A stretch of 63,290 nucleotides of DNA, counting the filler, from Clostridia bacterium (GTDB taxonomy: Bacteria > CBDUZB01 > JAGLHV01), in assembly GCA_030637025.1 (NCBI GenBank). It is 4 parts of 4 records of this genome, joined end to end, with 100 filler letters (N's around TTAATTAATTAA, not from the genome) between each part and the next. Parts side by side here need not be neighbours in the genome. Positions count along the whole stretch, not along the records: positions 1 to 27,063 come from DAOVVV010000034.1; 3 more parts are not named here. One strand, given 5' to 3'. Under the pieces are notes generated by a model. It was not told the DNA's origin and did not search any database. It worked only from the letters and a program-made list of their open reading frames with translations. A program made the position numbers and the translations under genes. This document shows positions 2,322-60,008 of this stretch, piece by piece. Each line of letters starts with the position of its first letter. Position 1 is the stretch's first letter.

Positions 2322-2443
2322 ATGCGGCTTTAATTAAATATTTAAATCTATTAATCAAATACTCGCGCTTTCTCGGGGAGAAGTGAAGGGTCTAATAAAT
2401 GAAAGAAGGGTTAATTTTTTTTTCAGTTAAAGGTGAATAATAA

Positions 2444-3526
2444 ATGTTAAAATTGACTAAAAAAGAAAATAGTTTATTTTTTAAATTAATGGTAATAATG
2501 GTGATTTCTTCTTTTATGGTTACCTCTGTTCCTGAATATAGTTGGGCACATTTAAGCGGGATATTAATTACTGATTTTATTTCTTCTCAAAAGGTAGTGG
2601 GTGATTTATATCGTTTACCCCAACAGAGCAAATTGATTTTTCCTTCCTTTTTTATGCAACAAATAAACAATGAAGATTTAAAAAAAGAAATAAAACAAGC
2701 GGTTAATTTTATTTATATTAGCAGGAAATTATCCGGAGAAAATAATAAACTGTTTAATACTCAAGTATGTTTAAAGGGTATAAATGAAAAAATATATGCC
2801 ACAGCAGAAGAAAGCTCAAAAATTATCACAAAATTTTGCGAGCTTCATTTAAACGGTATTAAAAAATCTTTTAATTTAAGGTTGGAAAATAATTTTTTAC
2901 TAAAATATATAAAACCAATCTTTTTTAGTCCGAATTTGTCTTTGAATAAATGGGAAGACAATCTGATTATGCTTAAAAAGCTGGGATTGCCGGTAAATAT
3001 TTTGACTGTTTTATTTGGGGAAAGGATTTTTCTTTGTTCTTCACGATATGTGCTTCAAACAAAAAAAAGACTTGTTCTTAAGGGAAAAAAAAGGATAAAA
3101 CAAAAAACAAAAATAAAAGAATGGAAAAATAGAAATAATTTTTGTTTAAACAATTTTATTTTAACGGCTTTAAAGAATTCAAATAGTAAGAATAAATATA
3201 TTATTAATTTACCTCAGGGGATAAGGGGTTCTCCTAAAACAAGCATAATAAAAAAGATTAATCAACCGGAGGCAAAAGACGAAGAAGAAGGGGTTTTTCT
3301 GCAGTCAAAACAAATCTTTAGAAATTCAAAATTTCATTTATTTTTTAAGAGTATAACTAAACACACAAAAAGTATATTAAATAATTTTCCAAAAGCAAAC
3401 CAAATCATTAATAATAAATTCCAGAAAAAAATAACCATAAAATTTAAATACTTCCTGCATCAGCCAGGGAGTATTTTTAATATTAAATATAAAATTACTG
3501 ATTTATTTTTAAAAGGTAGATCATAA
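2444..3526 (+). CDS. Signal-peptide-bearing basic hypothetical protein with SecM-like GIRGSP motif
   Basis: SD-like aaggtg upstream. N-terminus KLMVIMVISSFMVTSVPEYSWA looks like a signal peptide. Body is K/N/I/F-rich. PQGIRGSP at 3212-3235. Confidence 0.65.
   Translation: MLKLTKKENSLFFKLMVIMVISSFMVTSVPEYSWAHLSGILITDFISSQKVVGDLYRLPQQSKLIFPSFFMQQINNEDLKKEIKQAVNFIYISRKLSGENNKLFNTQVCLKGINEKIYATAEESSKIITKFCELHLNGIKKSFNLRLENNFLLKYIKPIFFSPNLSLNKWEDNLIMLKKLGLPVNILTVLFGERIFLCSSRYVLQTKKRLVLKGKKRIKQKTKIKEWKNRNNFCLNNFILTALKNSNSKNKYIINLPQGIRGSPKTSIIKKINQPEAKDEEEGVFLQSKQIFRNSKFHLFFKSITKHTKSILNNFPKANQIINNKFQKKITIKFKYFLHQPGSIFNIKYKITDLFLKGRS
3446..3478 (+). terminator. Terminator/attenuator-like hairpin upstream of the giant gene
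   Basis: aaatacttcctg-catcagc-cagggagtattt (12-bp stem, one G:U) running into a T tract. Confidence 0.35.
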
Positions 3527-3542: not shown

Positions 3543-6500
3543 ATGTCTTTGATTCAAGGTGCGGACGGAAAATATAGATCGTGGATTAAAATAGTGGCAG
3601 GGTTAACTTTGAGTTTTTTTATTGCTACTTTTTTACCAAATTATGCGTATGCTCAGGTGTCAATGTTGCCGCAGGCTATACCTTCGGATATGGCTTTGAA
3701 AGAGGTAATGATTAATCCTGAAAAATTAAAAGTTCCTACCAGTTTTGGTAAAATTGTAGATACTCATTGCGGGAAAGGCGATAAATTACTTATTTATATT
3801 CAGGATTTACATACTAATTATGAAGTGCAAACCAATATTTATAGTATTCTGGAAAATTTAACCGAAACTTACGATTTAAAGATAGTCGCCACAGAAGGAA
3901 CACAGGGAGAAATTGATACCTCCCTGCTTTCTACCTTTCCTTTGAAGAAAGTGAAAAAAGAAGTGGTGGAATTTTTTATGAGGAGGGGAGAAATAACCGG
4001 GCCGGAGTGTCTTTCTATAATGGGTCAAAAACCCCCTATTTTGTATGGTGTGGAAAAAAAGGAGTTATATCTTAAAAACTTAGGTTTGTATAAAAGTTCC
4101 CTGGATAGTAGAAAAAAATTGAGGGAATCATTAATTTCATTAGATAAAATAATTAAAGTTCTCCAGCAACAAATTTATTCTCCTGAAATTTTAAGATTAG
4201 TGGAAAAGGTTTCTTTGTATCAGAAAAACGAAATTTCTGTGGTTGATTTTGTTGGTTATTTGCAGGAAAGAGCTAAAGATACCAAGATAAATATAGAAAA
4301 AAGATTTAAAAATTTAGCGATATTAATAAAATTAATCCATTTAAGACAAAAATTAAATTCCGGTAAGAGCTTACAAATAGAAACAATGGCCATAGTATCA
4401 AGACTTTATGCAGTGATGAACGTTACGGAAATAAGAGGGTTGACCCGCAGAAGCCAGGAAAGCAAGGATTTAGAAAGTTATTATTTGTATTTAGAGAACT
4501 TAGCTAAGAAATATAAAGTTGATTTAAAATATTATTTTCCTTATTTAGCCAGTTATTTTGAATATATGGAACTTTCTCGCGGATTGAATAGTGTGAAGTT
4601 AGTAGAGGAGCAAATAAAATTAGTAGATGAATTGATTAATTTCTGGTGCAGGAATAAAGAAGAGAGAGAAATTATTCATTTGAGTAAAGTAATTGAAACA
4701 ATGAAGAAATTCATTGATATAAAGATGACCGGATGGGATATTGAATATTATCTAAAAAATAAGAAATTTTTTGACCGGGATAGAATTATAAATTTCTTAA
4801 AGAAAGAAATAAGAAAATATAAAAAGGAACCTTCTTCTGATATGCCTCCCGATGCTCTTCCTATGATTCTTGGCCGCTATGATTTGAATGAATTAGATGA
4901 TATACCGGATTTTAAAGAAGTCCTTACTACCAGTGAAGAATATTATGCTACCGCAGTTGGTAGAAATAAGTTCCTCCTGGAAAATAGTTTAAAAAAGATG
5001 GAGGCAGAAGAAAATTCCGTAATTGCTCTGGTTACCGGAGGTTTTCATACCCCGGGAATAACCAAACTGGCTAAAGAAAAAGGCCTTTCTTATGTGGTTG
5101 TTTCTCCGAATGTTACTCAGGCAGTAGATAGTAAGAGATATTTTGCTCTTTTAGAAGGGAAGGAAACCCCGTATAAAGATTTATTACTGGAACAAAGTGA
5201 ACTTTTACTTGCTCTTGCTTCCAAATTTATCGGTAAGGAATTTACCAGAAAGATAGCTTTTCTGATTACTAATTCCTTGATTAAAATGTATAAAAATAAA
5301 GATTGGTCAATGGAGGATATAAAAACTGAAATTGAAAATGTTTTTAACCGGACAAATGTGGAAAATGTGGAAAATTCTAAATTTCAGTTTCAGTGGGTAG
5401 AGGAATTAACCCAAAAAGATACAACCAGGGAAGTATATTCATTTAAGGTATTTGAAAATGACACCATAAAAAATGAGGGGATAAAAAGTATTTTGGCAAG
5501 CCGTATAATTATAGAAGGGGAAAAGAGATGGGAGACTAACTTTATAGATTCAAAAGAAGCTGAGGGGAATTTATCTGAAATAAAAATGGAAAAGATAAGA
5601 ATACAGAATTCCCTTAGAGGCCAGTTAGGTTTGTGGATTAGTGGTTCAATTAATTTCTTGAAAAGGGGCATGCAGATGCAATATTTTATGCATCTGGCAG
5701 GAAGAGTACAGGAAAGGGTTAAACAACAAATTATCGCCCAGGGAACCCTGGTTAACCTGGTTAAAAATACCTCCGCTTTACTTTTTTCTGCCTCGGCAGA
5801 TGTTGTTCTGGTAAAAGAAGAAATGATTGCTGAAGTACCTGGAGTGGAAGAAAAAGTGGGTGAGGTAAAAGTAGTGGAAGCGGAAGTTCCTGATGTAGAA
5901 GTGGCTGAAGTGCCGGATGTAAAAGTAGTAGAAGTTCCTGAAGTGGCAGAGAAAGTAGATGAAGTGGTGGAAGTAGTACCGCTGATTATACCTGTTATGA
6001 CTACCAGAGAATTGGGTAATGTTTCTTCTTTATATCAGGTAAAAGACCTTTATCAACAGCCCCTGCAGGATTTTCATGTTCCACCTTCTACCATTTCTGA
6101 GCAGGAGATGAGAGTAGAGGCAGAACAGGGTAAAATACTTATTCAACAGGGGAAATTTAATATTCTTAAACGTATTTCTCAGGCAAGAGGAATGAGGCTG
6201 GAAGGATATATTGAAGAATACGCCGTGGGAAAAATAAAGGGACGGCAAAATATGGCTAAAATACTTTCCGGAGTAATAATTAATCTGTTTCAATCTCTGG
6301 AAAATAAACTTAGTTCATCTAAAAAGGAATACTGGGATATTTTAGAAAAAATCAGTCAGGGGGAAATGGATTTTAATTCGGAGGAATTTTGGAATTTTAT
6401 GGCGGGAAATGACAACAGTGCGGAAATTTGGAAACTTATGCGTAGCGAAATAGCTAAGGCTTATGGTGCGGAAATATGGGCTAAAGAAAAAAATATTTCG

Positions 6501-9500
6501 ATAGAACAAGCAGAGCAGGAGATTTTAAAAGAAGTATTAAGCCCGATGGTGGATGGATTAACTGAGGAAATTAAAGCTGATTTAAGGCAGACAGGAGGAG
6601 AATTTACCGATAGTATTTTATATAAAGCACAGCTTAATCTTGATTTTGCTTATATGATTGATAATGCTGCTTTTGCCAAGGGTTTATATGAGGTGCAGGA
6701 TTTAGCGGCTGCTTATATGGCTAAAGATGGCGGTAGCTTTGTGGAAGTGCGTACGGGTGGAGGTAAGACCCTGATTGGTATGTTACCGGCTTATTTGATA
6801 GCCCTTAAAGGGGAAACTTGTCTTTTTATAACTAGAGATGCTACTCTGGTAAATCAATTTATAAAAGATAACCAAAATATTGCAGCTATTTTAGGGGTTG
6901 ATATGGAAGGATTCCTGAGGGAAGGTTCTGAAAATGTCAAAAAAGCGGATACCCCGGAAATTCAGCGTGAAATATTGAATGTTACTCCGGAAAATCAGGC
7001 AATAAGGAGAGGAAAGATTGTAGTTACTACTAGCCCTGATGTAGCTTTTACCGTGGGTTCGGATATGAAACTGAGTGAAAATGAAAAGGTTTTTCCCAAA
7101 GAATTTATATTTAATTTAATTTTTGATGAAGTAGATATGTCCGCAGCAACCCAGGCTACTATGGCTTATGTAGAAGCTTTGATGGCTGAGCCCCTCAACA
7201 AAGGGGAATTAAAAAGAGGTGTTTTTGCCGATTGGCTGGCTGTAGAATTAATCGGAGAAGGCGTAGATGAAATTCATAAAGCAGTAATAAAAGCTTATGA
7301 AAAAGGAGAAGAGCGTGAATTTTTGACTAAAGGAGGATTGGTACGAATTAATCTAACTGCGGGCAGAAAGGGCAGTCTAACGATAGCTCCGGAGGCAGAA
7401 TCTGTAATTAAGCAGTGTTATGATACGGCCCAGGAACAGGGATTAAGTTTAGGTAAATATAAAAAGTTCAGACAGATGGTAGAAGATCAGCTTACTGCTC
7501 AACTTTTACGAAAGAGTGATGAACAGTATGCATTTGAGAAAGTGGACGGTCAAATAGAAAGCAAATGTATTGAACCGGCTACAGGTGCCCGGACTAATCA
7601 ACGGGAACAAAGGATTCAGACTGCTATAGAAATTAAAGAATATAGAGCGGGAAATTTTAAGGGACAGGTCCTGGGAGAATCTCAGACCAATAATAGCCTT
7701 ACCATTCATTCTCTTATTGCTTTGGCTGTTAAATCGGGTGGTTTGGTGACGGGAATGAGCGGAACTTTCGGTAAGACAGTAACGGATGAGTTAGCTAAAA
7801 TAACAGGGAAAAAACTTTCACAGATCGGAATAGAGGTTCCTAGTCATTATGAAAGTGTGGTTGTAGACGAGGGTTTTATTTCCGGGGATACGGATTCTTC
7901 TACTATGGAAAGTATTATTAATTGGATTACTATGATAAAGAATGACAGAAAAGGGGCACCGATGTTGATGGCTTTAAATTCGGACAATACTACCCAGTGG
8001 ATAATAGAACAGATTAAAGAAGCGGTTAGTCTGGAGAAGTTTGCTTACAAAAATATTAAAGTGATTGGAGCAGAAACTGTTGTGGAGAAAATGGAAGAAC
8101 TGGAGCAGAACCGTTCTTCAGACACCTTGTTTGTTTATACGGTTACTGCTGCGACTACTGATTCCCAGATAGAACATATTCGTAAATATGGCGGACAGCC
8201 GGATACTTTACTTATCGGAGGAAAGACTATCGGGCGGGGTTTTGATGCTGGTTTTAAGACCATTAATGTTGAAGAAATCGGTCAACAGATAAAAACGATG
8301 TTGTTCGAAGCAGGAATATTCGAAGCAGAAATAGCGGAGGAAAAAGCAGCGGGTATTATTTTATTAATGGAAGAAATGCTCAATGATTTAAGAGCTGAGC
8401 GAAATATGGATATACGAAAAGAAAAAATTGAAAATATTAAAACATATTTTGATACAGTGCGTAATTTGTTAAAAGAAGGGGGAGTTAGCCTGGAGGTATT
8501 AGCTGAGTTTGAAACAATGGAACGACGGATATTTGCCCGGGAAGTATATGGTTTTCAGGGAGTTAATCAGTGTGATGATCTAACTTCTGGAGAAAGACGT
8601 CAAAGACAAGGACGGGTTGGCCGTCAAAGTGAGGCCGGTTCGACATGCGAATTAGTTTGTTATCAAAAAGGAGAAAGTAAATTTGGTGATATGATAGATT
8701 TTGAACGGGGGATAGAAGCTCCGTTGGGTGGAGTAATGGAAATGGGTAACGTCTTTAAATCTTTGTTAGCCGGAAAAATTAGTTTAAAAGAAACGTTTAT
8801 TCAGTTTGCACAAACTTCGTTTGTAGATAAATTGAAAGGATTTATATTGGGTGAAAATTCCGCTGAAGCGGCTTTTCGCAGGATGAATAGTTTAATAAAA
8901 GAATACAAACAACTTATTCAAGATCAAGGGAAAATAATAGAAAAAATTAAAGTCTCAGTCGGAGAGCAGGAAAAATCAGAATTAGAGCAACAATTAAAGG
9001 ACGTAAATGGAAAGATGGCAGGGATTAATAAGAAAGCAATTGCCCTTAAAATATATGCAGTAGATAGATTAGAAAGAAGTGATTCCCACTACCGTTTAGC
9101 TACCAGAAAGCGTAGTCTTTTTGCTACCCGGGTTTATGAAAAAATAGAAAAGTCCCGTAAGAATATTCTTAAAGCGGAAGTTACTAAATTAAACATTATT
9201 CAGCGTATTATTCAGGGTTTAAGGATAAGACAATTTTTTAGCCAGGAAGCTTTAGTCAGATTATTTATTAAAGATGAAATTAAGGATTACCGCAAAATGG
9301 CTAAAGAGATAGAAGATCCGGTTAAACGCAGTGAAATTTATCAACAGATGATTAGCCGTTTGGAAAAAGGATTAAATATAAAAGAAGGTGAACTTGCTGC
9401 GGAGTTGACTGAGGAAGCGTTGTTGTTTAAAAAATTAAAGACGAAAAAACTGGTAAATATGATTACGGAAAAGCTTATTGAGCAGAGGGGAGAGGAAAAT

Positions 9501-12500
9501 ATTTTTTATGTCGATGAACAAACCAATACCGGTGTTCTGGATGATGCTTTTAATTCGGTTAAAGCCCAGTATATCAGCTATGCGGAAAGCCAGCAGCACA
9601 AGAATATGGCTGTTCCTCTGCTTGCGGAGTTAATTAAAGTACAAATTTATAAAATAATACTCACTTATCGTTATCAAAGGGATATGCGCAGGATTGTTTC
9701 CCGGATGAGCCAGACAATGAGAGAGGGATTGGATAAAACCATAGAGACGGAAAGTTTGGGTAAAAAAAATATGGAAGTAGATGTAAATGCAGTTATTAGG
9801 AATGTTTCCGCAGGGATGACCGATGCTTTGAAAATAAGTGAATTAATGGCCGGTAAAGAAGAACGCAGTTTAAAAACACGGGTAGGAAAGGGTTTAGATA
9901 ACGCGGCTAAATTGTTTGCTGATTTTATGTGGCGAGCCCGGGGAAGATTATTAGGTGAAATTAAAGAACGGGTAGTTACCGTAGCGGAAAAGCGTGAAAT
10001 GGCGGCAGGTATACCCATGGTAATGGGACAGGCAGGTAAATCCCATACCGGAATAAAGGTTGCTGATTATAGAAAGGTGAATACTGACCAGATAGAGCGA
10101 GAAAAAGAATGGATGGAAAATAATCAAGTAACCCTGGATTTACAAGCTGGCTTAAAAGCAGAGGGATTTTTTGTGACTATGCCGGAAGAAAAAGTAGCAG
10201 AGGTAGCAGAAGAAAAACCAGTGGAAGTAGAAAAACCCGCAGAGGTAGTTACAGAAGTTCCTGGTGAGGGTCCTGAGATTCCCGAGGAAATCGTTCCTTT
10301 TGATACTAAAATAATTGCTCATTTTCAGGGGGAGACTGACCAAATAAATAAAGATTTGAATAATATTCAAACAGCTATTGAGGGGTTAGATATAGAGTTA
10401 GAAACAGAGGAAGTTAATAAAGTTTATCAGCAATTAAGTGAAATTCGGACAAAGATTTCCAGCTTAAGGCGCGAATATAAAACTATGGAAGTACCGGAAG
10501 ATTTAAGCAAAGATATTCAGTCATCATTAGAAAAAATAGGGACGGTTATCAGTACTCTGGATAATCAGGCAATTAAATTAAATAATGAATTGGATGATAA
10601 AACCGGAGCCCACATAGTTCCTTCCCGTTTTGATGTAAAGAATATTATTAGAAAAATTGACGGGAGGGTTTTAACTTTTACTCAAAATCTTGCTTCAAGC
10701 AAATTAGGCAAACCGGTTTTTGGACTTTCTTTAGGGGTGGTATTTGCCGGGTTTCTTTTTATTCTTTTTAATGGTTTATCTTTTGGTATGTTGCCTATTT
10801 TAGCTTTAGTTTTTACTCCGCTAACTATTTTATTTTCTTTCTTTAAAAAGGAGTCGGGAACTACTTTTCCTGCCCAGCCTAAAAAAGGAGCATTGGGTAA
10901 ATTAATGAATATTAGTGAAAAAGTTAAAGAGGTTATTGGCGGTACTCCCGGAAAGCCGGCTTCATGGACTAACCTTTTTATTTCAGGAATAACTTTAATT
11001 GCTTTCGGAATTAGTTTAGGTTTTGGCCCGGCTGTTCTTTTAACTGCAGGAACAGCTGTTTCTGCCGGAGTAAGTATGATGGGTTTTGGGTTCAGTCCTA
11101 TAATCTTCATTTTTATAACCAATGCTATATTACAGAAAACCAAATTTCTGGATAAGCTTGCCGATAAAATAAGCGGCCTGTTAGGTATTCGTAAAGCAAA
11201 AATAGAAAACAAAAAAGGCTTTGAAAATCTGAGATTACGGATGGAAGAAAATATTCGCCAAAACAAGGAAAATGTTCCTTTACCAATAGAACAGTTAGAA
11301 AAACAGGCAAGGATTATTGCTTTTGGGGGGGAGGAAATAGCGGAGGAAAAATTAACCCCGGCAATGAAGGAACAGTACCGGAATGTTCTCAAAGGTTTGG
11401 AAACATATTGGCGCAGTGTGGAAAGAGAGCTTTTGAAAGAAGCAATTAGTCAAAGTGAAAAAGATATTTCTCATGCGGCTGAGGTAAATAAAGCGGTAAA
11501 CGATGAGGCAATTGCCGCTTTTTGTGGTTTGAGAGTGAATTTCCAAAGAATTAAAGAAAAAAAGACATTACGACCCGATAATGAAAAATTAGAAGAGTTC
11601 GCTGTACAAATAGCTGCAGCTGAATTGGAAAAAGATGTTTCAGTAGGGGTGGTAAATGCCCGAGTTGAGGAGGTTCTGCCATATTTAAAAGAATATTGGT
11701 TTGAGGCTGAAGAGGAGGTCTTAACCGGGAAAATTGCTCAGGCTAAAGCAGATTTGGGTAATATAGTAAAAATAGCCGGAGAAGAGCAATTGGAATTAAT
11801 TGCTTCCAACGCTGTTCAACGTGCCCGGGCAGGGGAAAATGCACAAGCTTTAGAGTTATTGCAACAACGATTTGAAGAAAACAGAAAAATTTCTCAGCTT
11901 ACTCCCCAAAAATTAGCAAAAAGGCAAAAAACAATATGGGCAAACGTTGCCCTTAAATTGGGGTATCAACCGGGAGAAGAACTTTATCTCCAAATAAATA
12001 AGGCTTTACAACAATACTGGGTAAGTATAGAAGGGGAATTATTGCAATCAGCCATTAAACAAAGCCAGGAAGATATTACCCGTGCTTCTGCATTAAACAA
12101 AGCAGTAAATGATGTGGCTATTGCTGCTGTTTGCGGATTAGAAACCAGTCTGGAAAGAAGCCGGCAGAAAGAAACCTTACCTTCTGCGGAACAATTACAA
12201 AAACTAGCCGTAGATATAGTTAATGTTGAACTTAAGGAAGATGTTTCAGCTCAGGAAAGAAATGCCCGAATAGTAGAAGTGGTTCAATATTTAAAAATGT
12301 ACTGGTTTGATGCTCAACAAAAGCTTTTATCCAAAAGAATTGCTCTGGCAAGGGGGGATCTGGATAATATTGTAGACATAGCTAAAGCCCCTCAGGAAGA
12401 GTTAATTGCTCAATATGCCAGTCAGCTGGCACAGGCAAAAGAAGGGGTTGCCTTAAAAGAAAAAATAAAAAGATTAGCTACTTATATTGAACAGGAATTA

Positions 12501-15500: not shown

Positions 15501-18500
15501 GAAGAAGCAGGAGCAATAGTTAATAATGCGGCTATTCTAAGTAATAAGGAAAGAGCTTATAATGAGGATATAGATGTTTTGCCTGTAAAAGTTAGGCCAA
15601 AAGAAATGAGAGAATTATTAAAGAGTGAAGTATTTCGGCCAAAATATCAATATAAAATTGGCAAATATACGATTTATTTATCCAATTCTTATAAGAGTGA
15701 TAAAATTACCGACCGGGAGTCAGTTGTAGCATATATTAAAAGTCCGGACGGTAAAATTGTAATAAGGTCTTTTTACTGCTCTTTATCTTTAGGATTGTGG
15801 CATAGTGCCAGTCATTTTGGGCAGCCCGGAAGCCCTTTATGGATTGGAAAAGGTATGACAGCTTTTAAATTTTCTACTCAGTTACCAATACAGATGCAAA
15901 AGGTGCTTTTTGATATTCGTTCTCAAGTTGGGTTTGCTCAAGAAGTCAGCGGAGAGGAAGCAAAGAAAGTTTTTTACGGTGCGTTACAATATTTAATTCC
16001 TACAGAATACGAAAAAGAATTGGAAGGAATTTCTGAAGGAATTAGAGACATGATCAGAGATGTGCCTGAAAGTAGAAAAGTATTGGATTCTCAAAAAGGA
16101 ATGCACATAAAACCGGAAGATTTAAAGATTAAAAGTAAAAAACTTAGACCGGATTTCAGTAAATTAATAACCAGATTTGAAGTCAGGTTAAATCCGGAAC
16201 TTTATAAAGAGGGAATAGGTGAAGCCTATGTTTTTTATTCTAACGATAAAAAATTACAGTATCTGTTTTTAAGGGATACTTCCGGGAATGTGTGGTTGGG
16301 AACGATTGATTTTATAGAGGAGGATATTAACAATTTTGGGATAAGAAGGGTTATGTATAATCCTCTTGATTTAAGTAAACCGCCGTACGAATATTATGAC
16401 AATATTCCGGAGGGATATATAGGAGAACGGAAATCTGGAAGTTATTATGAGGTTATAAATTATCATCGTAACGTTTCGATTTTAAATGAAGCGAAGAAAG
16501 TGATAGAAGAGAGAAGTAAAGAAAGAACATGGGATGAATGGAAGAATATTTTCCGGGGAGAGGGTGTTGAAATTATACAAATGGAACCTGTTAGTGTTGA
16601 TGGTTCTGAAGTTTTAACAGAGGGAGATGCCCGGAGAAGACTGGCAACATATACTTTGGAAATAGATGCAGATAAAATCACCGCAATCGAAAAAATATTT
16701 GAAGAAATCGCAGTAATTGAAAAATACATTTCAGAAATTAAACAAAAGAACGTGAAGGAAATAGCAGCAGATTATAAGTCGTGGAATATAGATAAATTAG
16801 AAAATAAATTAAATGAAATTTTAAAAACGGGTAAACTGGATGATAAAGATTTAGACAAAAAAGTATTAGAAGAAGTTAAAGTAAATATAGATAAAATTAA
16901 ACAAATTAAAAATAGCATTAACCATGAATTAAATGTTAATCGGATTAAAACAATTGAGCAAGAAATAGAAAAAATCAGTAAACAAATTAGTGAAGAAATC
17001 AGTAAAGAATCGGAGTTTGTTTATTTAATGGATGTTAATGCTTTTAATAAATTCAACGAAACACTGGAAACAATCGATAGTAAAAGGCTGGAACTTATAA
17101 ATGTTAAAAAGCCCTTATTAGAAGAAAGTAGCATTCAGCAATTAAGGGAGTTTAGAAATCGCGTTAGGGATGAAAAAAGGTTGATAAAACAAAGCCTTGA
17201 CCTTTCTGTTGATGAACGGCAAATATTTATTGGCTGGTACTTATTTAATGAATATTATGAATTATATAAGGAAGACGATAAGCATGAGCAATTAATGCAA
17301 AATGTTAAGTTTGTTGAAAGATTAATTGCCTTAAATAAAGAAAATGATATTCCGGCAAAAGAAAAAGAATTATTTGCTTTGATTAGTGAGTTAAGAGCCA
17401 GAGGTATAAATGAGGAAATTTATAAGCAGGTGCAGAAAGTTAGAGCAAGGCATATAGAGCAAAAACAATCAGTTCAGGATTCTTTAAATATCATGATCAA
17501 TCAAATGAATGTAATAAGCGGTCAGCCGGAAGAATTATTACGGGATTTAAAAAGTAAGGAATCTACGGTAAAAGTTTTAGAGGAAAAAGCATTAGTTGAA
17601 TTTAAAAGTGATTCGGAAAAATTTGCTTTGTTTAGTAAAAAGAAAACTATTTCGAAAGTTGGAAAAGATGATTACTTTCAGCAACACCTGGCCACACATG
17701 CTAAACATTTTTTCGGAGAGGCAGAGCCGCTTAATGCAAGGCAATATAGAGAACTTATTGAGCAAATAAAACAAAAAGCGGATATGTGGTTTATCTCTTT
17801 TGATGAAAATGGAGTAAAAAGATATAACTATTATGAACAGGGACATAATGTTTTATTAATAATAACAGAATACAGAGACTCAAATCCATTATTTATAAGT
17901 TGTTATCCGGTTACTTCCGATAGAGTGGGAGAGCTTTTAAAGAGAGAAAAAACCTATGTTGTATCTGATTTGAGGGAAGAAAAAGAACCGGTAAAGGGGA
18001 AAAGATTTTCTACTACAGTCTTAATTTTTTTATTAGTAAGCATAGTCAGTTTTTTTGGACTTGGTGGTATAGCCATTGCAGAATCGGAAGGTTTAACAGG
18101 TGTTGTTTCCGGAATATCTTTATTAGGGGCAAGTTTACCCTGGATAGGAATTGGATTATTAGGTATAGGGATGGATGTATTGGGGTTGATATGGATGCGA
18201 GAAAGGATAAAGGCTCTACCTACATTTTTGACTCCAAAAATAATTGCTGGGTTCGGAGGAGGTATTGGGAGGATTGAGAAAAAATTAATAAGGGTTTCTA
18301 TTGCTATGAATACAAGGTCAGAAGATGAAGAGAGTGAAAATAAAATAATTAGTGGAATGTATAAAAATTTGAAGAAAATTCAGACTCAAATTTCCGCACT
18401 TAACCGTAAATATCAGGCTGTAGAAATTCCCGCGGGTGTGAGTGAAGAACTTAAGGAGGCATTTAAAGATATTGGAGTTAGATTAACTAATGTCAATAAT

Positions 18501-21500
18501 CAGGCAATTGACTTAAATAGGCAGCTTGATGAAAGAAGAGGACCTATAGAAGTTAAGCCCCCGGTCGAAAAAGAAGTGAAAGTCAAGCCGGAAGTTGTTA
18601 CTACCGAGATAAAAGATTTGGTGAAAAAATTTTATGTAACAGGTTTACTTTTGGGAATATATATTCTTGGTTCCTTCATATTACTTCCCGGATTTAATAG
18701 CGCAGTTCCGGAGCAAATGAATTTGTTTTCTTTTTTCTTTAAAATATCTTTAGAAATGTTAACCGAGCAAGGGGATGTTGTCGGATTAATATCTCTTTTT
18801 TCCGGTGGAAGTATGGCTTCTATTTTTGCTATGGGTCTGTTGCCGTATTTTCTTGCTTCCACGGCAATTCAATTAGGAAGCTTTGTTTTTCCGGGAATAA
18901 AGAGAAGGATAAGCCAGGGAGATGCGGGAAAAGAACGACTGGAAAAATATACCCGATATTTAGCTTTAGGGATAGCAGTTTTTCAGGCGATAATAATGGT
19001 GAATTACTTAATGCCTTTTATGGTAGGTGCGGCATTAATACTTAAATTATCTACGGCTGTATCTTTAATTGTCGGGACTGCTTTTATTATGGGGATAAGC
19101 GAGCAAATAGGAAAAAGAGGCCTGGTTAAAAGAGGCAGTTTACTGGTAATAAGTGTAGGGATGTTAACCAGTATGGTATTTACTTTATTTAGCGGTCCTA
19201 TAGCAATGGCTGCGATATTTTTCGTAGCAATTGCCGTTCCTTTAGCTATAGTTATTCATAAGGTGCATTATAAAATTCCGGTCAGATTTGCTCCGCTTGC
19301 CCGTAAGGAAGCGAAAGAGAAGATGGGGTTTTTGCCTTTAAAGCTGGATACTGCCGGGGTAAGTGCGATTATTATTACTATGTCTTTTCTGATGGTAGGA
19401 TCGATGATTTCTACTGTTTTTATGGGGGCAGGGGCTATTACTATTGGGCCGAATTTAATGACCGCTATTACAGGGATAATGATATTTTTCTTTTCTTATG
19501 TAGGTACGACCAGGGTACAGATGAATGTAAAAGATCTGGTCAAGGATTTTTTACGGGGAGGAAAAATCATTCCCGGTGTTGCCCCTGGTGTGCAAACAGG
19601 GGAATACATAAAAAAGACAATAAATAGAGTGGGGTTTTTAGGTGCTTTATTGGTTACTGCCATTACTATTGCCCCAGCGGCGTTAGGGATTGGGACTTAT
19701 GCTTTAGGAATGACTATTTTAATTTCCACTCTGGTTTTCTTAGAAATTTTCAATCAGATAAGGGTTGCCTGGTCCAGTTTAAAAGTAGCTACACCCGAAG
19801 TGGTTGAAGCAGAAGAAACAGCGGAGAGGAAAAGCATCAAGTATTTAGTTGTGGCAGCAAGTGGATTATTGGGGCTGGTTAGTTTATTTTATTTAGCTTT
19901 ACCCTCTTTAGTAGACATACTTACCATGGAAATTACTTCCACACTTTTTCTGGTAGTAGGAACGGCTGTTTTGATGGGCGTGTTGTTTTTTAATTTAACT
20001 TCTTTCGGCCAACAGATTTTAAAAAACAGAGCCAGGAAAATATCTATACTCAGAGAGAAAGCAGACATAATAGATGTATTAAGGGAGAAGTATGCCGGAA
20101 AGAGCAATGAGCAATTATTGGCAGAAGCTGAGCGGTTAAGAGGGTTATTTACTCCTGAAATGACCGATGAAGAGGCGGTCAAAATACTGGAATCAATGGA
20201 CGAAGACGGTATACCGATTAAGCTGAAGGGTATTGCCTTAGCTATGACTAATATTGAACGAACTTCCCGGGAAAGTGCAGTGGAATCAGCTATTGAATGG
20301 TTAGAAAAAGATACAGAGTCGATGACGGATAAAGCAATAAAATTAGCCATTAAGCAGGCGAAGGGAAATAATGGGGAAGCATCCCAAAAAGTAGTAGATT
20401 TAGTTTTGTTTAAAATAAATAAAAAATTAGAGCAAAAGATAAGTGTACATGAAAGATTGAAATTAGAAGAAGAAATAGGAAAGATTGAGAGGAAATGGAA
20501 TTTCACTTTTAATCCCAATCAGGTATTTACTGCCCTGGCTTTGTTAGAGCGGGAAATTAAAGAAAAAACATTACTTGGTGATTGGTCAGGGAGGATACAG
20601 GGGTGGATTACTCCCAGCGACTTAATGCAGAAAATAGTAGGCAATTATGTTCAGCTACCCGGGGGAGAAGGGAAAACCCAGGTAGCTGCGAGTGCTTTAT
20701 TTACAGCATCTTTAGCCGGCCGGGGCAGTCAGTTATTAACATCGCATAAAAATCTGGCTAAGTCGCAAGGGAAAGAGATGGCTATGTGTTTAGCGCGTTT
20801 AGGGACCAGTGTGAGTGTTGTAGGAGCCGAGTATGATGAGCAGGGAAGGCAGGTGCATTATGTATATAAACTGAAAGAATTGGGTAAAGATAAGGTTAAG
20901 GTTGAATTGGTTAAAACTACTGATGTGGAAGTAGCTTATAATGAATGTGATATTACTTATAGTGATGAAGCTACGGCTAATCATCTAAGGCAGATGCACT
21001 TTTTAAATTTGCGTCCTTCTTTTTACGCTGCTTACGATGAAGGAGATGCGATTTTTAAAACTACTTCTCCCAGGAAAATATCCGCAGGAGCAGAAGGGGA
21101 AACATGGAGTAATGAGAATATAATTGCTTTAAGAAAACTCTTTTTAGAAGATGGATTAAGGGAAGGTGATTTTAAATTGGATTTCCGGGGGGATGGAAGG
21201 ATCAGGCTTACCGGAAATGGACAGGCTCAATTAAAGAGAATAATTAAAAATGAACAGCAAGCGGAAAAAATTATTAACTATTTCAGAGAAAATGGTTTAC
21301 CGGAAAAATTTGTTTTTGGGATGCTGGTAAAAAGGTTAAAACAAGCTCAGGAACGGAGAGAAGGGGAATATTTTAAGGTAAATTATGAGGAAAAAGAAGA
21401 AGTAGTAGAATTAACCTCTGCCGGCAGGGAGATAATCGAACGGAATTATTTAGGGCTTCCTTTAGATTTATCACTTACCCAGTTGGATATAATTCATTCC

Positions 21501-24500
21501 CATTGTTTACACGCGGCAATGCAGGCGGAATTTTTCTTCAGGCGTCACAGTAAAGAAGCAGTGGAAGAAGCAAAAAAGCAGGCTGAAGAAATAGGTGCCC
21601 CTCAGGTTCAGCAGTTAAAGTGGTATGACCTGGCATGGGTAAAGGATGCACAGGGGAATGATATTGTAGCCTTAGGCCCGATTAATCCGCTTAGCGGAGC
21701 ATGGGAAAGAACGCAAGTAGCAGGAGGCATTCATCAGGCGATGGAAATTGCCGTAGTATTAGATAGAGTAGAAAGGGAAGAAGTGGTTGCTAAATTTAAA
21801 TTAACCGATGAGGGAGATACCTTCAGTCAATGGACTATTCAGCAATATACTCAACAGCATTTCTGGATGGGGGCTTTATCTGCTACCGGGACAGAAGATA
21901 GAGGGTTTGAGAAAGAATTAAAGAGAGATTATGGCCTGGCTATGGTAGATATTCCCCAGGATAAAGCAGTGAGTTTAAATAGGGATAAATATGAAAATGG
22001 TTATTTTATGAAAATAAAAGACCAGATTAGTTATATTAGTGGGCTTATTGGGGAACATTGTAATATAGGCGGGATATTTGTAGTTGCTTATACCGAGGAA
22101 AAAATGATGCAGATTTTTGCGGAAGTTAAACATTCCCTGGAGAAAAAGGCTGAATGTGCCACTATTGAACCTCCGGATGTATCTCTTAGTCCGGATGAGT
22201 TTGATAAAGAGCTTATAGCTAAAATTTCCCGGGCACAGAAAGTAGAACCAGGTAAACTTACTTTATGTAAGTTAGCCAGTGGAACTACTGATGAACAGAT
22301 AGATGCTATTGCCGAGATAGGTAAATTACCCGGGGTAATAATATTTACAACTGCACGCGGTTCCAGGGGATTTAGTGTAATGGGTAAGAAAATGTTGATG
22401 ATTGAAGCGGAACTGGCACAAAGTCCGGCTGATACTATTCAGTCTTTTCGCCGGGTAGCCAGGCAGGGAGAAGAAGGTTTTGGGGTACAGGTGTTTAGTT
22501 TTGAGGATTCCGGATTATTTACCAAATATGCAAAAGGATTTGTAAAGAAGTATTTAACAAAAGGAAAAGAAGGGAACTTATTTGGAACGACCCTGGGGAC
22601 GTTATTAGAGAATATGATTAGAAAAGAAATACAGCTTACTATTGGGCTTAAACAATTATCGGAAAGAATGTTTTTTACCAAATATTATAAGACTACCCAT
22701 AAAAACAATTTAAAAGTTTATCAGTGGCAGGAAAAGATTGGGGATGCCTCTGACAGACAGATAAACAGATATGTAGAGAGATTAATTGAAATGCAGATAA
22801 GTAGTTTAAGTGGTAAGTATGCATCTTCCAAGGGAATAAAAGAAGTATTAAATGAAATAATAGCAAGGAGCGTAGAGGAATACACCTTGACCCAAAACCC
22901 CGAATTTTGGAAATTGGAGAAATTAGAAAGAGGTTTAATTAATTTATTTCCTCAGGAAAAAGATGAATTAAATGAAGTTTTCGCAGAGATAAAAATGGTG
23001 GTGGAAAGTCGTAAAGGTCCTCTGGATAATCGCGCTTTGTTTGCTTTAAGAAAAAAGGTAATTAAAAAATTGGAAGGATTTGTTGCTCAATTGGATGATG
23101 AGGTTTTAATAGAAAGAGGGCGGTATTTATTAACGAGGCAATTAATTGGTTTGGGGTTACCTCCAAAAGAAGTAGAAAAAATAGTTTCTTCGGAAGATTA
23201 TCGGGAAATGGTTGAAGGAACCGGTGACAGGTTAAGTAATAATTTATTGTTTTTAGTTAAGGACGGATATAAGGCAGGGATTGAGGTAGGGGATTTTTCT
23301 GTAGAACAAATAAAGCAGATGTTGGTTAATGTAATTAGTAAAGAGAGAATAAATTATTTAACTACAGTTGATGTGGCAATGCAAAAAGTACAATTGCTTG
23401 CTTATGCAGGAGAAGAACCTTTAGGGGAATTTAATTTTGAAGTCAACAAAAATTTTCAGGAATATACTCAGAAGGTAGTAAGAAGGGTTTTTAAAACGGT
23501 TTTTATCAACAGGATGAGAAAAGAGGAGAAACCTATTTCTTTTGCTCAGGGGATTAAAAGAATAGAAAAATTACCCACATTAAAAAGAGTTATTTTTATA
23601 GAAGGGGCTGCTCAAATCCGGGATTGTTATCAATATCGTCTCCACGGTGTGGCCGGGGAAAAATTTTTATATGAATCCCTGGAGGATTTAGGGATTAAGG
23701 AATTAAAGGAAATTTTTGCCGTACCGGAAAAAATAAAAGAAGAAATCGTAGCTGAGGGGATAGAACAAACAATTTATTCAATGCCGGAAAGAGTTATTTC
23801 CCAGGAAGTAAATTTAGATGTTGATAGAAACAAAGATATAAGGGATGCTTTAGCCAGGAGAATAACTCCTTTATCCGGGCAGTTCACAGCAGAGAATATC
23901 GGTGCGGTGGAAATAGCCGGTTTTGGAAAAACTACCAGTCCGTTGACAATAGTAAGAGTGAATAACCCTGAAAAAATTGATTCTACTGTATTGCAATGGG
24001 TGGAAGAAAGATTAGCTTTGATAAATTCAAACAGCAAATTGGTATTTGTTTATGCCGGAAGTAAAGAATCATTGAGAATGAAGAAAGGGGTTACGGCAAA
24101 AGTTTATTCTCTGGTAAAGAAAGAAAATAGAAAGCTGAAGGTGAAAGAATCAGTACCCATGTATTTTTATGATGTATTTAATGAGAAAATATCCGATGAA
24201 ATGCCGCGATTGGGAATTGTTTCCGTAATACTGTGGTCAGTCGGCCGGTGGATTTCAGGGATTTCTATTCGTTCTCCGGGAATGGCTTTAAGACGTATCT
24301 TTAGTGAATTGGGACTGGAAAATTTACGGGAAGCAGGAATTATCCGCACAGTCTATAGTTTCTTTTCTCTTTTTGCTTTAGCCGGCGGGCTTATGGTTGG
24401 ATTGGCTCAGAGTGTAGCGGCAAGTGATGAGGTAGCAGTTCCGGTAACGGAAGAAGAAGTAATAGAAGAAGTTCCCGGAATAGAAATAGCAGAAATAGAG

Positions 24501-27063
24501 GAAGAAGAAATAATTACACCTGAACCTACGGAAGAGCCCACAGAAATACCTGCGGAAGAGCCGACAGAAATACCTACAGAAGAGCCGACGGAAATACCCA
24601 CAGAAGAGCCGACAGAAATACCTACAGAAGAGCCGACGGAAATACCGACGGAAGAACCGACAGAAATACCTATGGAAGAACCTACGCCAGAGGTAACGCC
24701 CACACCCGAACCCACAGAAATACCCACAGAAGAGCCTATAGTAGGAGAATTACCGGAAGAAGAAGAGATGATGTTTTTGCTTACCACCGAACAGCTGGAA
24801 GGTTTGGGGTTTGATTTATCAGCGGTGAGGTCTTTTGAAAAAATAGATGACAATGTTAAACTTATCTATTTCGATGATAGTGAAGCAGTATATAATTTAG
24901 ATTATAAATTAATATCTTTAATAGATGAAGAAGGAAATGTTTGTGAAGTCATTCCTACCGAAGATAATGAAGTTGTTAATATTAAAATACCTGCTAAAAA
25001 TTGGGTTTTAACCTATGATACCAAGGGAGCAAAAATAACTGCTGTTTATGATGAATCTATAAACCAATTTATTGATTTAACAGTTGTTTCGGAATCTACT
25101 CTTAGCGGACTTACTTCCGGCATAAAAATTCTTGATGCTGTAGGAGATATAAAAGCAAATGATCCGTACGAAGGAGATTTGTTGAATAAAGCCCGAGACT
25201 ATTTTAATGCAGGGGAGTATGATAATGCTATAAGTTCTTGTGAAGAATTTATAGAGGTTTTTGAAGAAGATGCTATGCTGAAGCGTGATCAACTGGAAAT
25301 TTTAGGTGGAATGGATGACGCAGTAAATGGTGTTGAATGGGGGAAGATATTTGAAGAGTATGGAACATTAATAAATATGATAGAGATATATGACATTATG
25401 ATTAAGAGTTGTGAACTAAACCATGAAGATAGTAAAGCCGAAGACTATGGTAATGAATTGAAAAAAAATTATCCGGATTATATAGATTTACGGACAGATC
25501 AGGTATTGCTTATTGGGGCAAGGGTAAATTTTAATGAGGAAAATAACGAAATATCAATTCTATATGCAAACAAGTTGTATAATATTTTTGGGCAGATAAA
25601 AGGAATACAGTCTGCAGTCTCAGCTATAGCCGAAGTATCCATTTATATGGTGGTTTTAAATCCTGATGGCGTCCCGGGAGATGATGGTAAGACCTGGGAA
25701 GAAATTTATGAAGAATATCATCTTTTTACCAGGGATCAGGTATTAACCAGTGCAGTAAGAGAGAATTGGAAAACCAATCCTGTGTATGCAAAGGAATGTG
25801 CTGAAGAGTTGTACGAAATTTTTTATAATTTAGATATAGGAAAACCTTTTGATGTCATAGAGGCAGTAAAGGGACATAGATGGGGTGGTGTATTAGCCGG
25901 ACATGCTTCGGCGATGAATATAGCAGAAGTAAGTATCTATCTGAATATGGATGAAATGAAAGAAGTTTTGAGCGAGGGTGAGAAGGAAAAATGGAAAAAT
26001 ATATATAAAAACTATTCAGATTGTCCAATGGAGCAGGTATTAGCTTTCGGGGTGAGGGAAAATCACAAGGATAATCCTGACTATGCAAAGGAATATGCTA
26101 CTAATTTATATAGATGGCATTCAACAATAGATGCAGGGAAACCGGTATGGAGTAGTTATGAAGAGGTAGAGGAAGCGGTTAGAGGGAGAGAATGGATAAA
26201 AATTTTAGCTGAACATTCAGCGGCGTTAAATATAGCCGAAGTAAGTATTTATATGAAAAAAATAGATCCTAATGGTGTGCCTGTAGAAGGAGGAAAAACA
26301 TGGGAAGGGATATATGAAGAATATAAGTGGCATGATATGGGACAGGTGTTAGCTATCGGAATAAGAGAGAATTATTATAGTGGAAATTATGAATATATGC
26401 AGGGATATGCAGAAGGGTTATACAGTATTTATCATGATTCCGATATAGGTAAAAGCTTTGATGTAGGAAATGCAGTGAAAGGTAAAGAGTGGAAAGATGT
26501 GTTAGCTGAACGTGCTATAGCGATGAGTATAGCAGAAGCAAGCATTTATATGAATAAAGAGGAAGTGAAAGAAGTATTAGATGGAGAGGATATAGAACTA
26601 TGGGAAAACATATATATAGAATATAGCAGTTGTACTACGGATCAAGTATTGGTAGCCGGGGTAAGGGAAAATTATAAAGAAAATTCGGGATTAGCCGATG
26701 GATATAGGGCGGAATTTAAGAAAATGTTTGTAGATGCAGCCGAGGGGGAAGAAAAAGGGATAGTAGAACAACAGTGGGAAGCGTTACAGGAGGAATTAGA
26801 CAAGGATAAACCGTTTGAGGGTATGGGTGTAGGTACGGCGATGGGTAATTATGGAATAGTATTAAGCTGGAATGAGATAGGAGCGATATACGGAGATACG
26901 GAGGTAACCAATAAATATACTTACGGTACGGCCCAGCTGTTGGTGGCCGGGGTAAAGGCTAATTATGCGGATAACAAAGGTTTAGCACTCGGATATAAAG
27001 ATATGTTTAAAGTGTTGTTTGTAGATAGCGGTATAGTGGATGAGCAATTGGAAAGACTTAAAA
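3543..27063 (+). CDS. Giant multidomain membrane protein (at least 7,840 aa, 3'-truncated) with two SecA-like ATPase domains and a SecY-like channel
   Basis: Uninterrupted frame from ATG 3543 (SD gggagg) to the N gap. The apparent stop at 27119 is in the artificial spacer. Signal peptide ends PNYAYA. Domain evidence is in the entries below. Confidence 0.95.
3740..5170 (+). other. Giant-protein N-terminal domain, TraB/TIKI (EreA/ChaN-like) fold candidate with helical insertion
   Basis: Motifs IQDLH, ATEG, GRNKFL and ALVTGGFHTPGI occur in the order typical of this superfamily. Confidence 0.5.
6660..9720 (+). other. SecA-like ATPase domain 1 within giant ORF
   Basis: LYEVQ...EVRTGGGKTLIGMLPAYLIALKG (Walker A), IFDEVD (7125-7136), EPATGA...IQTAIEIKE, GMSGT, GRGFD and QRQGRVGRQ (8601-8627), all in SecA order. 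Confidence 0.88.
11406..12390 (+). repeat. Tandem duplication of about 203 aa (609-nt period) within giant ORF
   Basis: YWRSVERELLKEAISQSEKDI..NKAVNDEAIAAFCGL..YLKEYWF vs YWVSIEGELLQSAIKQSQEDI..NKAVNDVAIAAVCGL..YLKMYWF (starts 11406 and 12015). Confidence 0.9.
14470..14960 (+). other. Histidine-kinase-type ATPase (HATPase_c) domain within giant ORF
   Basis: N box ELITNANEHG, G1 IKDDGRGI, F box IFNKGF, G2 GTGLGL, G3 GSTFNLTL. Confidence 0.9.
15207..15437 (+). repeat. Internal signal-peptide-like/TM hairpin repeat, copy 1
   Basis: KRFPFIALTSFLVSIFSVFGLVGIAMA-ES...VVSGISLLG...GVLGLRWILKRIK. Shares an exact 27-nt stretch gttgtttccggaatatctttattaggg with copy 2. Confidence 0.85.
17982..18212 (+). 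repeat. Internal signal-peptide-like/TM hairpin repeat, copy 2
   Basis: KRFSTTVLIFLLVSIVSFFGLGGIAIA-ES...VVSGISLLG...DVLGLIWMRERIK. Confidence 0.85.
18624..19763 (+). other. SecY-like translocon channel domain within giant ORF
   Basis: Ten hydrophobic segments and SecY signatures in order: GSFILLPG, LFSGG, SIFAMGLLPY, GKERLEKYTRYL, GTAFIMGISEQIGKRG, LPLKLDTAGV, IIPGVAPGVQTGEYI, GMTILI. Confidence 0.92.
20010..23520 (+). other. SecA-like ATPase domain 2 within giant ORF
   Basis: SecA N-terminal helix (KYAGKSNEQLLAEAERLR), QLPGGEGKT (20661-20678), YDEGD (21036-21047), NPLSG...GGIHQAMEI, SATGT, GSRGFSV, QSFRRVARQGEEG, SFED and the C-terminal LLAYAGEEPLGEF (cf. LRGYAQKDPKQEY). Confidence 0.88.
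24516..24737 (+). repeat. 24-nt tandem repeat encoding EEPTEIPT linker
   Basis: About 8 imperfect copies of gaagagcc(g/c)ac(a/g)gaaatacc(t/c)ac(a/g), a Pro/Thr/Glu spacer. Confidence 0.95.
25497..27063 (+). repeat. About 100-aa helical repeats at the visible C-terminal end of giant ORF
   Basis: Anchor (D/E)QVL..GVREN at 25497, 25734, 26031, 26340, 26640 and 26931; most units also contain NIAEVSIYM-like and AVKG.EW motifs. Confidence 0.85.
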
Positions 27064-27163
27064 NNNNNNNNNNNNNNNNNNNNNNNNNNNNNNNNNNNNN
27101 NNNNNNNTTAATTAATTAANNNNNNNNNNNNNNNNNNNNNNNNNNNNNNNNNNNNNNNNNNNN
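27064..27163. other. Artificial contig spacer
   Basis: N-run, TTAATTAATTAA (stops in all six frames), N-run; 100 nt. Confidence 0.97.
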
Positions 27164-54860: not shown

Positions 54861-54960
54861 NNNNNNNNNNNNNNNNNNNNNNNNNNNNNNNNNNNNNNNN
54901 NNNNTTAATTAATTAANNNNNNNNNNNNNNNNNNNNNNNNNNNNNNNNNNNNNNNNNNNN
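54861..54960. other. Artificial contig spacer
   Basis: N-run, TTAATTAATTAA, N-run. Confidence 0.97.
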
Positions 54961-59908: not shown

Positions 59909-60008
59909 NNNNNNNNNNNNNNNNNNNNNNNNNNNNNNNNNNNNNNNNNNNNTTAATTAATTAANNNNNNNNNNNNNNNNNNNNNNNNNNNNNNNNNNNN
60001 NNNNNNNN
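59909..60008. other. Artificial contig spacer
   Basis: N-run, TTAATTAATTAA, N-run. Confidence 0.97.

Follow-up and report, generated by a model that had tools for sequence, protein, structure and literature searches.

In a window of 63,290 nucleotides from the draft metagenome bin GCA_030637025.1 (Clostridia bacterium), which consists of four stretches from separate contigs joined end to end, one giant open reading frame (ORF) was found to encode in a single chain a SecA-like motor (SecA-1), a complete, divergent SecY channel domain with ten transmembrane (TM) segments, a two-TM hairpin and a second SecA-like ATPase (SecA-2). Few bacterial proteins are as conserved or as well studied as SecY and SecA, which are known as the products of separate housekeeping or accessory genes. 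The order SecA ... SecY-hairpin-SecA in one frame had been proposed in an initial annotation of this DNA, and Pfam, NCBIfam and hydropathy agreed on it. Judged from its sequence, the giant product crosses the inner membrane of an uncultured cold-seep bacterium many times, and nearly all of its mass is predicted on the cytoplasmic side. The fused module was read as a dedicated translocon that would act in cis on the C-terminal part of its own chain, a reading to which we assign a probability of about 0.5.

The frame of at least 7,840 amino acids (aa) that had been reported was recovered as an uninterrupted run of codons up to the contig end. The ORF caller listed 3543..27119 (+) as 7,858 aa, and the genomic letters stop at 27063, where an artificial linker (N-runs around TTAATTAATTAA) joins the next contig. 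Since the frame meets this linker without a stop, the gene is truncated at its 3' end by the contig end and encodes at least 7,840 aa. On the opposite strand within the giant frame no ORF exceeded 236 aa, the next longest being 209 and 153 aa, so in DNA of about 36% GC an open frame of 23.5 kb is not a product of chance. The features of the chain are listed in Table 1.

A complete SecY domain in the giant chain

The Pfam family SecY (PF00344) matched aa 5093-5402 with an E-value of 1.2e-44 (153.4 bits vs a cut-off of 32.2) and covered profile positions 1-305 of 306. The NCBIfam SecY match TIGR00967 had exactly the coordinates 18624-19763 that had been assigned to the domain before, and the accessory SecY2 model scored 84.8 bits (cut-off 249.6), below the score of the SecY model. 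In a sequence search of the PDB, the domain aligned over its full length with solved SecY chains (3dl8_G, 1.2e-33). An AlphaFold (AF2) model of the domain, built from a 50-sequence alignment, reached a predicted local distance difference test (pLDDT) of 77.9 and a predicted TM-score (pTM) of 0.76. All 50 of the matches listed for this model by Foldseek were SecY or Sec61, with TMt up to 0.75 and 5gae_g as the best match (E 2.3e-15, TMt 0.74), so the predicted fold agreed with the assignment. Hallmark stretches of SecY were recognisable in TM2, the C4 hairpin, the C5 loop and TM10.

Two SecA-like motors of different extent

SecA-2, which had been placed at 20010-23520, was supported over nearly the whole of that span (Table 1), and its N-terminal region starts within about 10 residues of the post-SecY hairpin. 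Pfam SecA_DEAD was found at aa 5630-6118 (1.3e-10) and SecA_SW at aa 6429-6654 (4.4e-5; 25.7 bits vs a cut-off of 26.7 when the region was taken alone). Aligned with T. maritima SecA, SecA-2 gave five collinear pieces, each weak alone, which comprised nucleotide-binding domain 1 (NBD1) with Walker A, an insert, NBD2 and the C-terminal part, and a stretch resembling the two-helix finger (aa 6618-6630) matched the C-terminal helices of that protein with one Tyr opposite the other. Based on these alignments, SecA-2 probably retains the channel-engaging C-terminal part. The preprotein cross-linking domain was not called by Pfam here, and an insert occupies the corresponding place in the alignments; the domain was called in the relative P0005 and weakly in P0004 (see below). 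The giant ORF stayed below the cut-offs of both the SecA equivalog TIGR00963 (29.4 bits vs 800) and the accessory SecA2 model (39.5 bits vs 930).

SecA-1 had been drawn from 6660 to 9720; a motor was confirmed at 6654-8627 (aa 1038-1695), but the remainder of that span was not demonstrated as SecA. Pfam SecA_DEAD matched aa 1038-1198 (3e-11), the alignment with the family profile ran from NBD1 to NBD2 only (probability 95.7%, 466 columns), and neither Pfam nor the profile alignment detected a wing or scaffold in SecA-1. Both SecA_DEAD copies scored 41.5-46.1 bits (cut-off 24.6), and both motors retain Walker A, Walker B, motif III and motif VI, those of SecA-2 being kept across the relatives. 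When SecY (aa 5025-5410) was modelled in complex with the last 611 residues of SecA-2, the score was 0.15 (mark 0.32) and supported neither side.

Membrane topology

Hydropathy analysis gave about 22 TM segments over the giant ORF, 10 of them in the SecY stretch. Over SecY and the post-SecY hairpin, 33 Lys and Arg residues fell in cytoplasmic-type loops vs 1 in periplasmic-type loops, which supports the earlier proposal that the hairpin returns the chain to the side of the SecY C-terminus. All hairpins have positive flanks on both sides, and the last TM is preceded by an Arg-rich loop and followed by a flank with 5 acidic and 0 basic residues. This charge pattern places both SecA domains and a histidine-kinase-type ATPase upstream of SecY in the cytoplasm, and the acidic linker and C-terminal repeats are predicted to lie outside. 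The post-SecY hairpin would thus tie the N-terminus of SecA-2 to the membrane and hold the motor tethered beside the cytoplasmic mouth of the channel.

The topology also bears on the suggestion that the protein is secreted and that its SecY-like part is inserted into a prey or host membrane for the delivery of effectors. The signal-peptide-like segment at the N-terminus would suit such a route, and giants of ultra-small bacteria have been linked to predation in the abstract of West-Roberts 2023 (10.1101/2023.11.21.568195). However, the protein has two ATPases with their motifs intact and a further one of kinase type, which depend on ATP and hence on a cytoplasm, the positive-inside pattern fits insertion into the producer's own membrane, there are no secretion-system genes on the contig, and Pfam found no adhesion or lytic domains in the giant ORF. 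We found no support for this suggestion and regard it as very improbable.

A rare family with a conserved module

Relatives were sought exhaustively with HMMER among 1.84 billion cluster representatives. The query, aa 5050-6249, gave 3,279 matches at E<=1e-3, nearly all of them ordinary SecY. E<=1e-30 was reached by four proteins (P0002, P0003, P0004 and P0005). In three of these four best-scoring matches (P0002, P0003 and P0005) SecY was followed by SecA_DEAD in one protein, and the fourth, P0004, was a SecA-only fragment. The value of P0005 (9.1e-33) came from the SecA part alone, and its SecY was found separately by Pfam (3.6e-36). P0002 (MCK5218449.1, '[bacterium]', 2,037 aa) and P0003 (MBN1596347.1, candidate division FCPU426 bacterium, 3,157 aa) are annotated as 'hypothetical, partial' and each fills a whole contig, and P0005 (1,527 aa) and its cluster mate P0155 (ENA) begin with a genuine N-terminus and are cut off where their short contigs end. 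The same architecture was therefore present elsewhere, and with three relatives among 1.84 billion representatives the SecY-hairpin-SecA family is rare.

The fused relatives have the SecY, hairpin and SecA module at 26-30% identity and are collinear with the giant ORF over up to 1,894 columns at 24-28% identity, and in P0002 and P0003 the SecA_DEAD profile begins 7-9 residues from the last helix of the hairpin. The module starts at aa 321 in P0005, at aa 603 at least in P0002, at aa 1187 at least in P0003 and at aa 5028 here. P0002 shares the N-terminal domain of the giant chain in two blocks (31% and 22% identity); there it sits immediately before SecY, with no TM between the two, and P0003 has TMs after SecA that are preceded by the conserved 60-aa block. 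A profile built from six family sequences alone matched 43 PDB sequences, every one of them SecY/Sec61 or SecA/SecA2 (SecY 1.6e-65, SecA 2.9e-37). When 50 SecY sequences were placed in a tree, a branch with a support of 96 in the Shimodaira-Hasegawa-like approximate likelihood ratio test (SH-aLRT) separated the four fused domains from 46 free-standing SecY; the four sit on long branches, so this grouping could be exaggerated.

Other searches did not extend the family. A word-based protein search for giants of similar length gave 0 matches, and one with the family alignment gave 4 matches only, one free-standing SecY and three ordinary SecA. Genome contigs (42 loci) and metagenome contigs (35) matched the SecY part only, at 25-37% identity and as ordinary SecY genes. 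A query over the junction was covered to 80% in none of the 27 matching plasmid records and none of the 8 phages.

Integrity of the assembly

The fusion could be an artefact, either a chimeric assembly or a decaying pseudogene, as might be suspected from the draft state of the metagenome bin, from a contig end within the gene and from strain variants with loose ends, e.g. at 18726 in two cold-seep runs. Cold-seep metagenome runs contain the stretch, and per-run contigs were compared over 7064-27063; runs X1 and X2 may be the samples that the bin came from, but their contigs were produced run by run with a different pipeline. Depth was flat at about 20x (X1) and about 9x (X2) in 29 of 30 bins. 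A single X1 contig covered 18099-22039 with 0 differences and a single X2 contig 18866-23066 with 4 differences, the former bridging from the upstream sequence and the latter from SecY, each on through the hairpin into SecA-2. The junctions were thus bridged at flat depth in two runs, and this, together with the same order in three distant relatives, makes a chimera unlikely. A decaying gene would also have to account for 7,840 codons without a stop, and the whole explanation is close to refuted.

Some variation was seen around the locus. X1 and X2 each contain a contig that matches from 18726 onward with a different upstream sequence and loose ends of 255 nt; these samples may contain another locus or strain in which a similar SecY part has a different upstream context. 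Pieces at 90-99% identity were present in runs X5 and X7, which belong to two other studies. The final bin has about 4-fold depth over the C-terminal repeats, which accounts for the break of the assembly there.

Other parts of the chain and neighbouring genes

Outside the SecY and SecA parts few known families were recognised. The N-terminal domain (aa 118-543) had no Pfam, PHROG or PDB match, the PDB sequence search of the chain outside the SecY and SecA parts gave only low-complexity matches, and PHROGs over the remaining chain gave a single weak match (aa 2530-3700, 1.8e-05, transcriptional regulator). The best Atlas scores, 0.84 for SecA clusters and 0.83 for TPR-like C-terminal repeats, were both under the counting level. 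Of the enzyme-like and repeat modules announced earlier, the HATPase_c domain and the repeats were confirmed, but no further enzyme appeared in the Pfam, NCBIfam and PDB searches. The term 'polyprotein' was rejected, as Pfam found no protease domain or processing site in the giant ORF and there was no evidence of cleavage.

A helical segment of about 73 aa occurs twice, before the four-TM cluster that follows SecA-1 and again before SecY, and may be a membrane-approach or targeting element. The HATPase_c domain lies between the tandem helical duplication and hairpin A. In run X7, from another study of marine sediment, a contig joins 15318 to 18094 and skips 2,775 nt (925 codons), with 8 and 24 differing letters in its two pieces. 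The skipped part lies between 80%-identical hairpin repeats at 15205-15438 and 17980-18213, and the contig therefore represents a related strain without the module aa 3926-4850. These observations point to recombination between hairpins as a driver of modular gain and loss.

Table 1. Features of the giant ORF and the joining linkers (positions along the window).
Feature	Position	Residues (aa)	Strand	Basis or remark
Giant ORF	3543..27063		+	start ATG 3543; 7,840 sense codons; no stop
N-terminal hydrophobic segment, signal-peptide-like	3579..3638	13-32	+	hydropathy; small-residue cleavage-type motif
N-terminal domain, no known family	3894..5171	118-543	+	common to P0002
SecA-like motor 1 (SecA-1)	6654..8627	1038-1695	+	Walker A aa 1071-1076, Walker B aa 1194-1198, motif VI aa 1690-1695
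Helical segment, first copy	10389..10607	2283-2355	+	36% identity to copy before SecY
Four-TM cluster	10713..11132	2391-2530	+	hydropathy; positively charged flanks
Tandem duplication of ~210-aa helical unit	11205..12449	2555-2969	+	41-50% identity
HATPase_c, histidine-kinase-type ATPase	14589..14957	3683-3805	+	Pfam 3e-16; NCBIfam
Two-TM hairpin A	15228..15428	3896-3962	+	53% identical to hairpin B
Two-TM hairpin B	18000..18197	4820-4885	+	homologous to hairpin A
Helical segment, second copy	18324..18542	4928-5000	+	immediately before SecY
SecY channel domain, complete, divergent, 10 TM	18624..19763	5028-5407	+	Pfam, NCBIfam, PDB, AF2/Foldseek
Two-TM hairpin after SecY	19833..20009	5431-5489	+	hydropathy; in all four fused proteins
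SecA-like ATPase 2 (SecA-2)	20031..23504	~5497-6654	+	Pfam, NCBIfam, PDB, motif alignment
SecA-2 motifs		5707-5712; 5831-5835; 6303-6312		Walker A (lysine Lys 5711); Walker B; motif VI
Conserved ~60-aa block between SecA-2 and last TM	23907..24089		+	38% identity to P0003 aa 2798-2858
Internal signal-peptide-like TM	24348..24425	6936-6961	+	Arg-rich upstream, acidic downstream; ~280 residues behind SecA-2
Acidic Pro/Thr/Glu linker	24426..24752		+	12/24-nt tandem repeats; Pfam PT repeat
C-terminal ~100-aa tandem repeats	25311..27062		+	run to contig end
Artificial contig-joining linkers	27064-27163; 54861-54960; 59909-60008			N-runs, as described in the text

Upstream on the same contig there are just two ORFs, of 766 and 360 aa, with a gap of 16 nt to the giant gene; neither had a Pfam or PHROG family match, and the 360-aa ORF has a signal-like N-terminus. 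As the linkers join separate contigs, genes after 27163 are not neighbours of the giant gene. No canonical secY, secA or secE was present on the other contigs of the window. The AspS of the same bin had its nearest named relative in '[bacterium]' at 87%, followed by about 60% to many phyla. On another contig (48892-53014) a gene trio encodes an FHA-domain/beta-propeller protein, a PP2C phosphatase and a Ser/Thr protein kinase, a eukaryote-like signalling set, and on a further one (55304-58720, minus strand) a 1,138-aa fusion of MFS transporter, acyltransferase and AMP-binding enzyme is probably a lysophospholipid transporter and re-acylation protein.

Discussion

That giant proteins can contain SecA-like domains, and that they might export themselves, has been published before; what is new here is a conserved SecY-hairpin-SecA in one frame with a candidate cis cargo. 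According to the main text of West-Roberts 2023 (10.1101/2023.11.21.568195), most giants, from Omnitrophota and some other phyla, have divergent SecA DEAD and preprotein-binding domains, these SecA-like domains are without wing or scaffold, normal SecA and SecYEG are encoded elsewhere and 'not syntenic' with the giant genes, and the SecA-like domains are proposed to export the giant protein itself. SecY is named once in that main text and no fused SecY is given there, although the supplementary tables could list one. The protein described here resembles the giants of that text in its very long ORF, its many TM segments, its two divergent SecA_DEAD domains and a SecA-1 that likewise is without wing and scaffold. 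It differs in the whole SecY in frame and in SecA-2, which seems to keep a wing/scaffold-like part. The glycosyl transferase/hydrolase, peptidase, NUDIX and dockerin domains reported there were absent here by Pfam at E<=0.01, so the archaeovorin- and dockerin-type sets do not apply, and the giants of that main text reach tens of thousands of residues in full length, compared with at least 7,840 aa for the gene here. A 2026 Omnitrophota preprint names a PF07517 architecture cluster, and no occurrence of SecY was counted in its text. The earlier remark that no described SecA/SecY/cargo fusion was known held up, in that full-text literature searches turned up no natural SecY-SecA fusion.

The closest counterpart is artificial. 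In the sections of Sugano 2017 (PMC5562318) on the fusion, an engineered SecY-(GGSG)4-SecA with SecE and SecG translocated proOmpA about as well as the separate proteins and gained nothing from extra SecA or SecYEG. In that 'SecYAEG' too the SecY C-terminus is joined to the SecA N-terminus, and one covalent unit can translocate. As described there, however, it was made from housekeeping proteins with a flexible linker of 16 residues, SecE and SecG were added and the substrate was supplied in trans, whereas the natural module has a two-TM hairpin as linker, is highly divergent and lies within a giant chain. Among the PDB matches was 5eul, 'SecA, Insertion Peptide Chimera', which we take to be SecA with a substrate fused in; if this is right, a substrate can engage the channel while covalently attached.

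Several points weigh against a functional channel with its cargo in cis. The NCBIfam SecY match TIGR00967, which spans aa 5028-5407, scored 139.2 bits and was under the equivalog cut-off of 253.6. In 46 free-standing SecY, 43 positions are conserved to 90% or more; individual sequences of that set keep 38-43 of them, the SecY domain here keeps 28, and its three fused relatives keep 18-23. The C5-loop Arg is R in 40 of the 46 free-standing SecY, is Ala here, and is A, P and R in the three fused relatives. This Arg is important for SecA-dependent translocation in E. coli, and its loss may be an effect of the covalent tether or may mean that the function is lost. No SecE- or SecG-like segment was found among the TM segments of the giant ORF. 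In SecA-2 the finger-like stretch is a weak local alignment (6.8 bits alone) and was not recovered in P0003. The fold check for SecA-2 was divided: SecA and SecA2 structures ranked above any other protein listed by Foldseek (first 4.6e-13), but the model was poor (pLDDT 53.4, pTM 0.28) and its TM-scores to SecA structures were just 0.17-0.24. The N-terminal signal-like segment predicts an N-in/C-out orientation, and with no further TM before aa 2391 SecA-1 would then sit outside, which conflicts with the cytoplasmic position that this motor needs; P0005 likewise begins with a signal-like segment. If the weakly hydrophobic stretch at aa 6891-6909 crossed the membrane, the topology of the C-terminal part would be reversed; the stretch contains Arg, and is read here as probably not membrane-spanning. 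The 3' end of the gene lies beyond the contig, and the 'cargo' is therefore only partly known.

Some of these points would suit a degenerate, non-conducting SecY that serves as an anchor or docking platform, with the SecA-like domains as ATP-driven unfoldases or remodelers at the cytoplasmic face. The C5-loop Arg is lost in three of the four fused proteins, which keep just 18-28 of the 43 highly conserved positions and lie on very long branches in the SecY tree, no SecE/SecG-like part was found in the ORF, and SecA-1 is without wing and scaffold, like the motor-only SecA domains of other giants in the main text of West-Roberts 2023. Yet the 10-TM fold and most hallmarks are kept across lineages that are only 26-30% identical, and a mere anchor would need neither; SecA-2 still has its ATPase motifs and, probably, the C-terminal part that engages the channel. 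We consider a degenerate anchor quite unlikely.

The remaining question is the substrate. Accessory Sec systems are encoded by separate genes with Asp and glycosylation (glycosyltransferase) partners and have serine-rich cargo. The module here shares with the Gram-positive SecA2/SecY2 pair the character of a dedicated second SecY and SecA for large unusual surface proteins, but its components are in one ORF, the two upstream ORFs have no family match, and no serine-rich repeats were found in the giant ORF. The module may nevertheless be an accessory translocon that acts in trans on other proteins, such as those encoded next to it or other giants, with the remaining chain regulating or localising it. 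Accessory SecA2/SecY2 systems that export other proteins do exist (PMC6973325), and their NCBIfam models match weakly here. The kinase-type ATPase and the second motor could be regulatory, the distance of the module from the N-terminus differs greatly among the relatives, and the upstream 360-aa ORF has a signal-like N-terminus. On the other hand, the chain itself continues directly into a signal-like TM, an acidic linker and repeats, TMs also come after SecA in P0003, and no candidate substrate gene was found, the two upstream ORFs being without family match. Action in trans is therefore considered unlikely, if somewhat less so than a degenerate anchor.

A SecA-derived motor linked to very large surface proteins is also known from the free-standing secondary SecA_DEAD proteins with HlyD and M50 partners and no SecY fusion, as treated in the sections of Kamneva 2015 (PMC4452313) on these proteins. 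Those are short motors without a SecY-engaging part and with type-I-like components, whereas the motors here are inside the giant ORF; no HlyD, M50 or GAF neighbours were found upstream of the giant gene on its contig.

Self-export, which the initial annotation had offered as one of two interpretations, fits best with the signal-like TM, acidic linker and repeats downstream of SecA-2, and we infer it on that ground. During N-to-C synthesis, the housekeeping machinery would insert the SecY domain, and SecA-2 would fold before the last TM emerges, its N-terminus kept by the hairpin at the membrane beside the channel. In free SecA the lipid-binding N-terminal helix provides this membrane tethering, and an artificial tether can replace it. 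The signal-like TM (aa 6936-6961) would then loop into the lateral gate of the private channel, and SecA-2, using ATP, would thread the acidic linker and the C-terminal repeat region outward. With a channel of its own, such a giant chain would not occupy the essential SecYEG for many minutes. In its full form as an 'autotranslocon', in which the chain's own SecY and SecA thread its C-terminus, possibly many thousand residues, independently of the essential Sec machinery, the model is more tentative, and we place it below even odds. The two-TM hairpin would in that case replace the lipid-binding N-terminus of SecA and perhaps SecE, and the whole would amount to a SecY-SecA machine of natural origin, present in a single copy and covalently joined to its substrate.

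If the natural, conserved fusion is what it appears to be, evolution has reached the same pairing of one channel with one motor that had been engineered for single-molecule experiments. The fusion would then reveal which features of SecY, such as the C5-loop Arg and the need for SecE, are dispensable once the motor is covalently attached, and structural work would gain a complex that is tethered by nature and brings a candidate cis substrate. The module would also provide a concrete and testable answer to how giant membrane and surface proteins cross the membrane, and its interest to research on protein translocation and on giant proteins is high.

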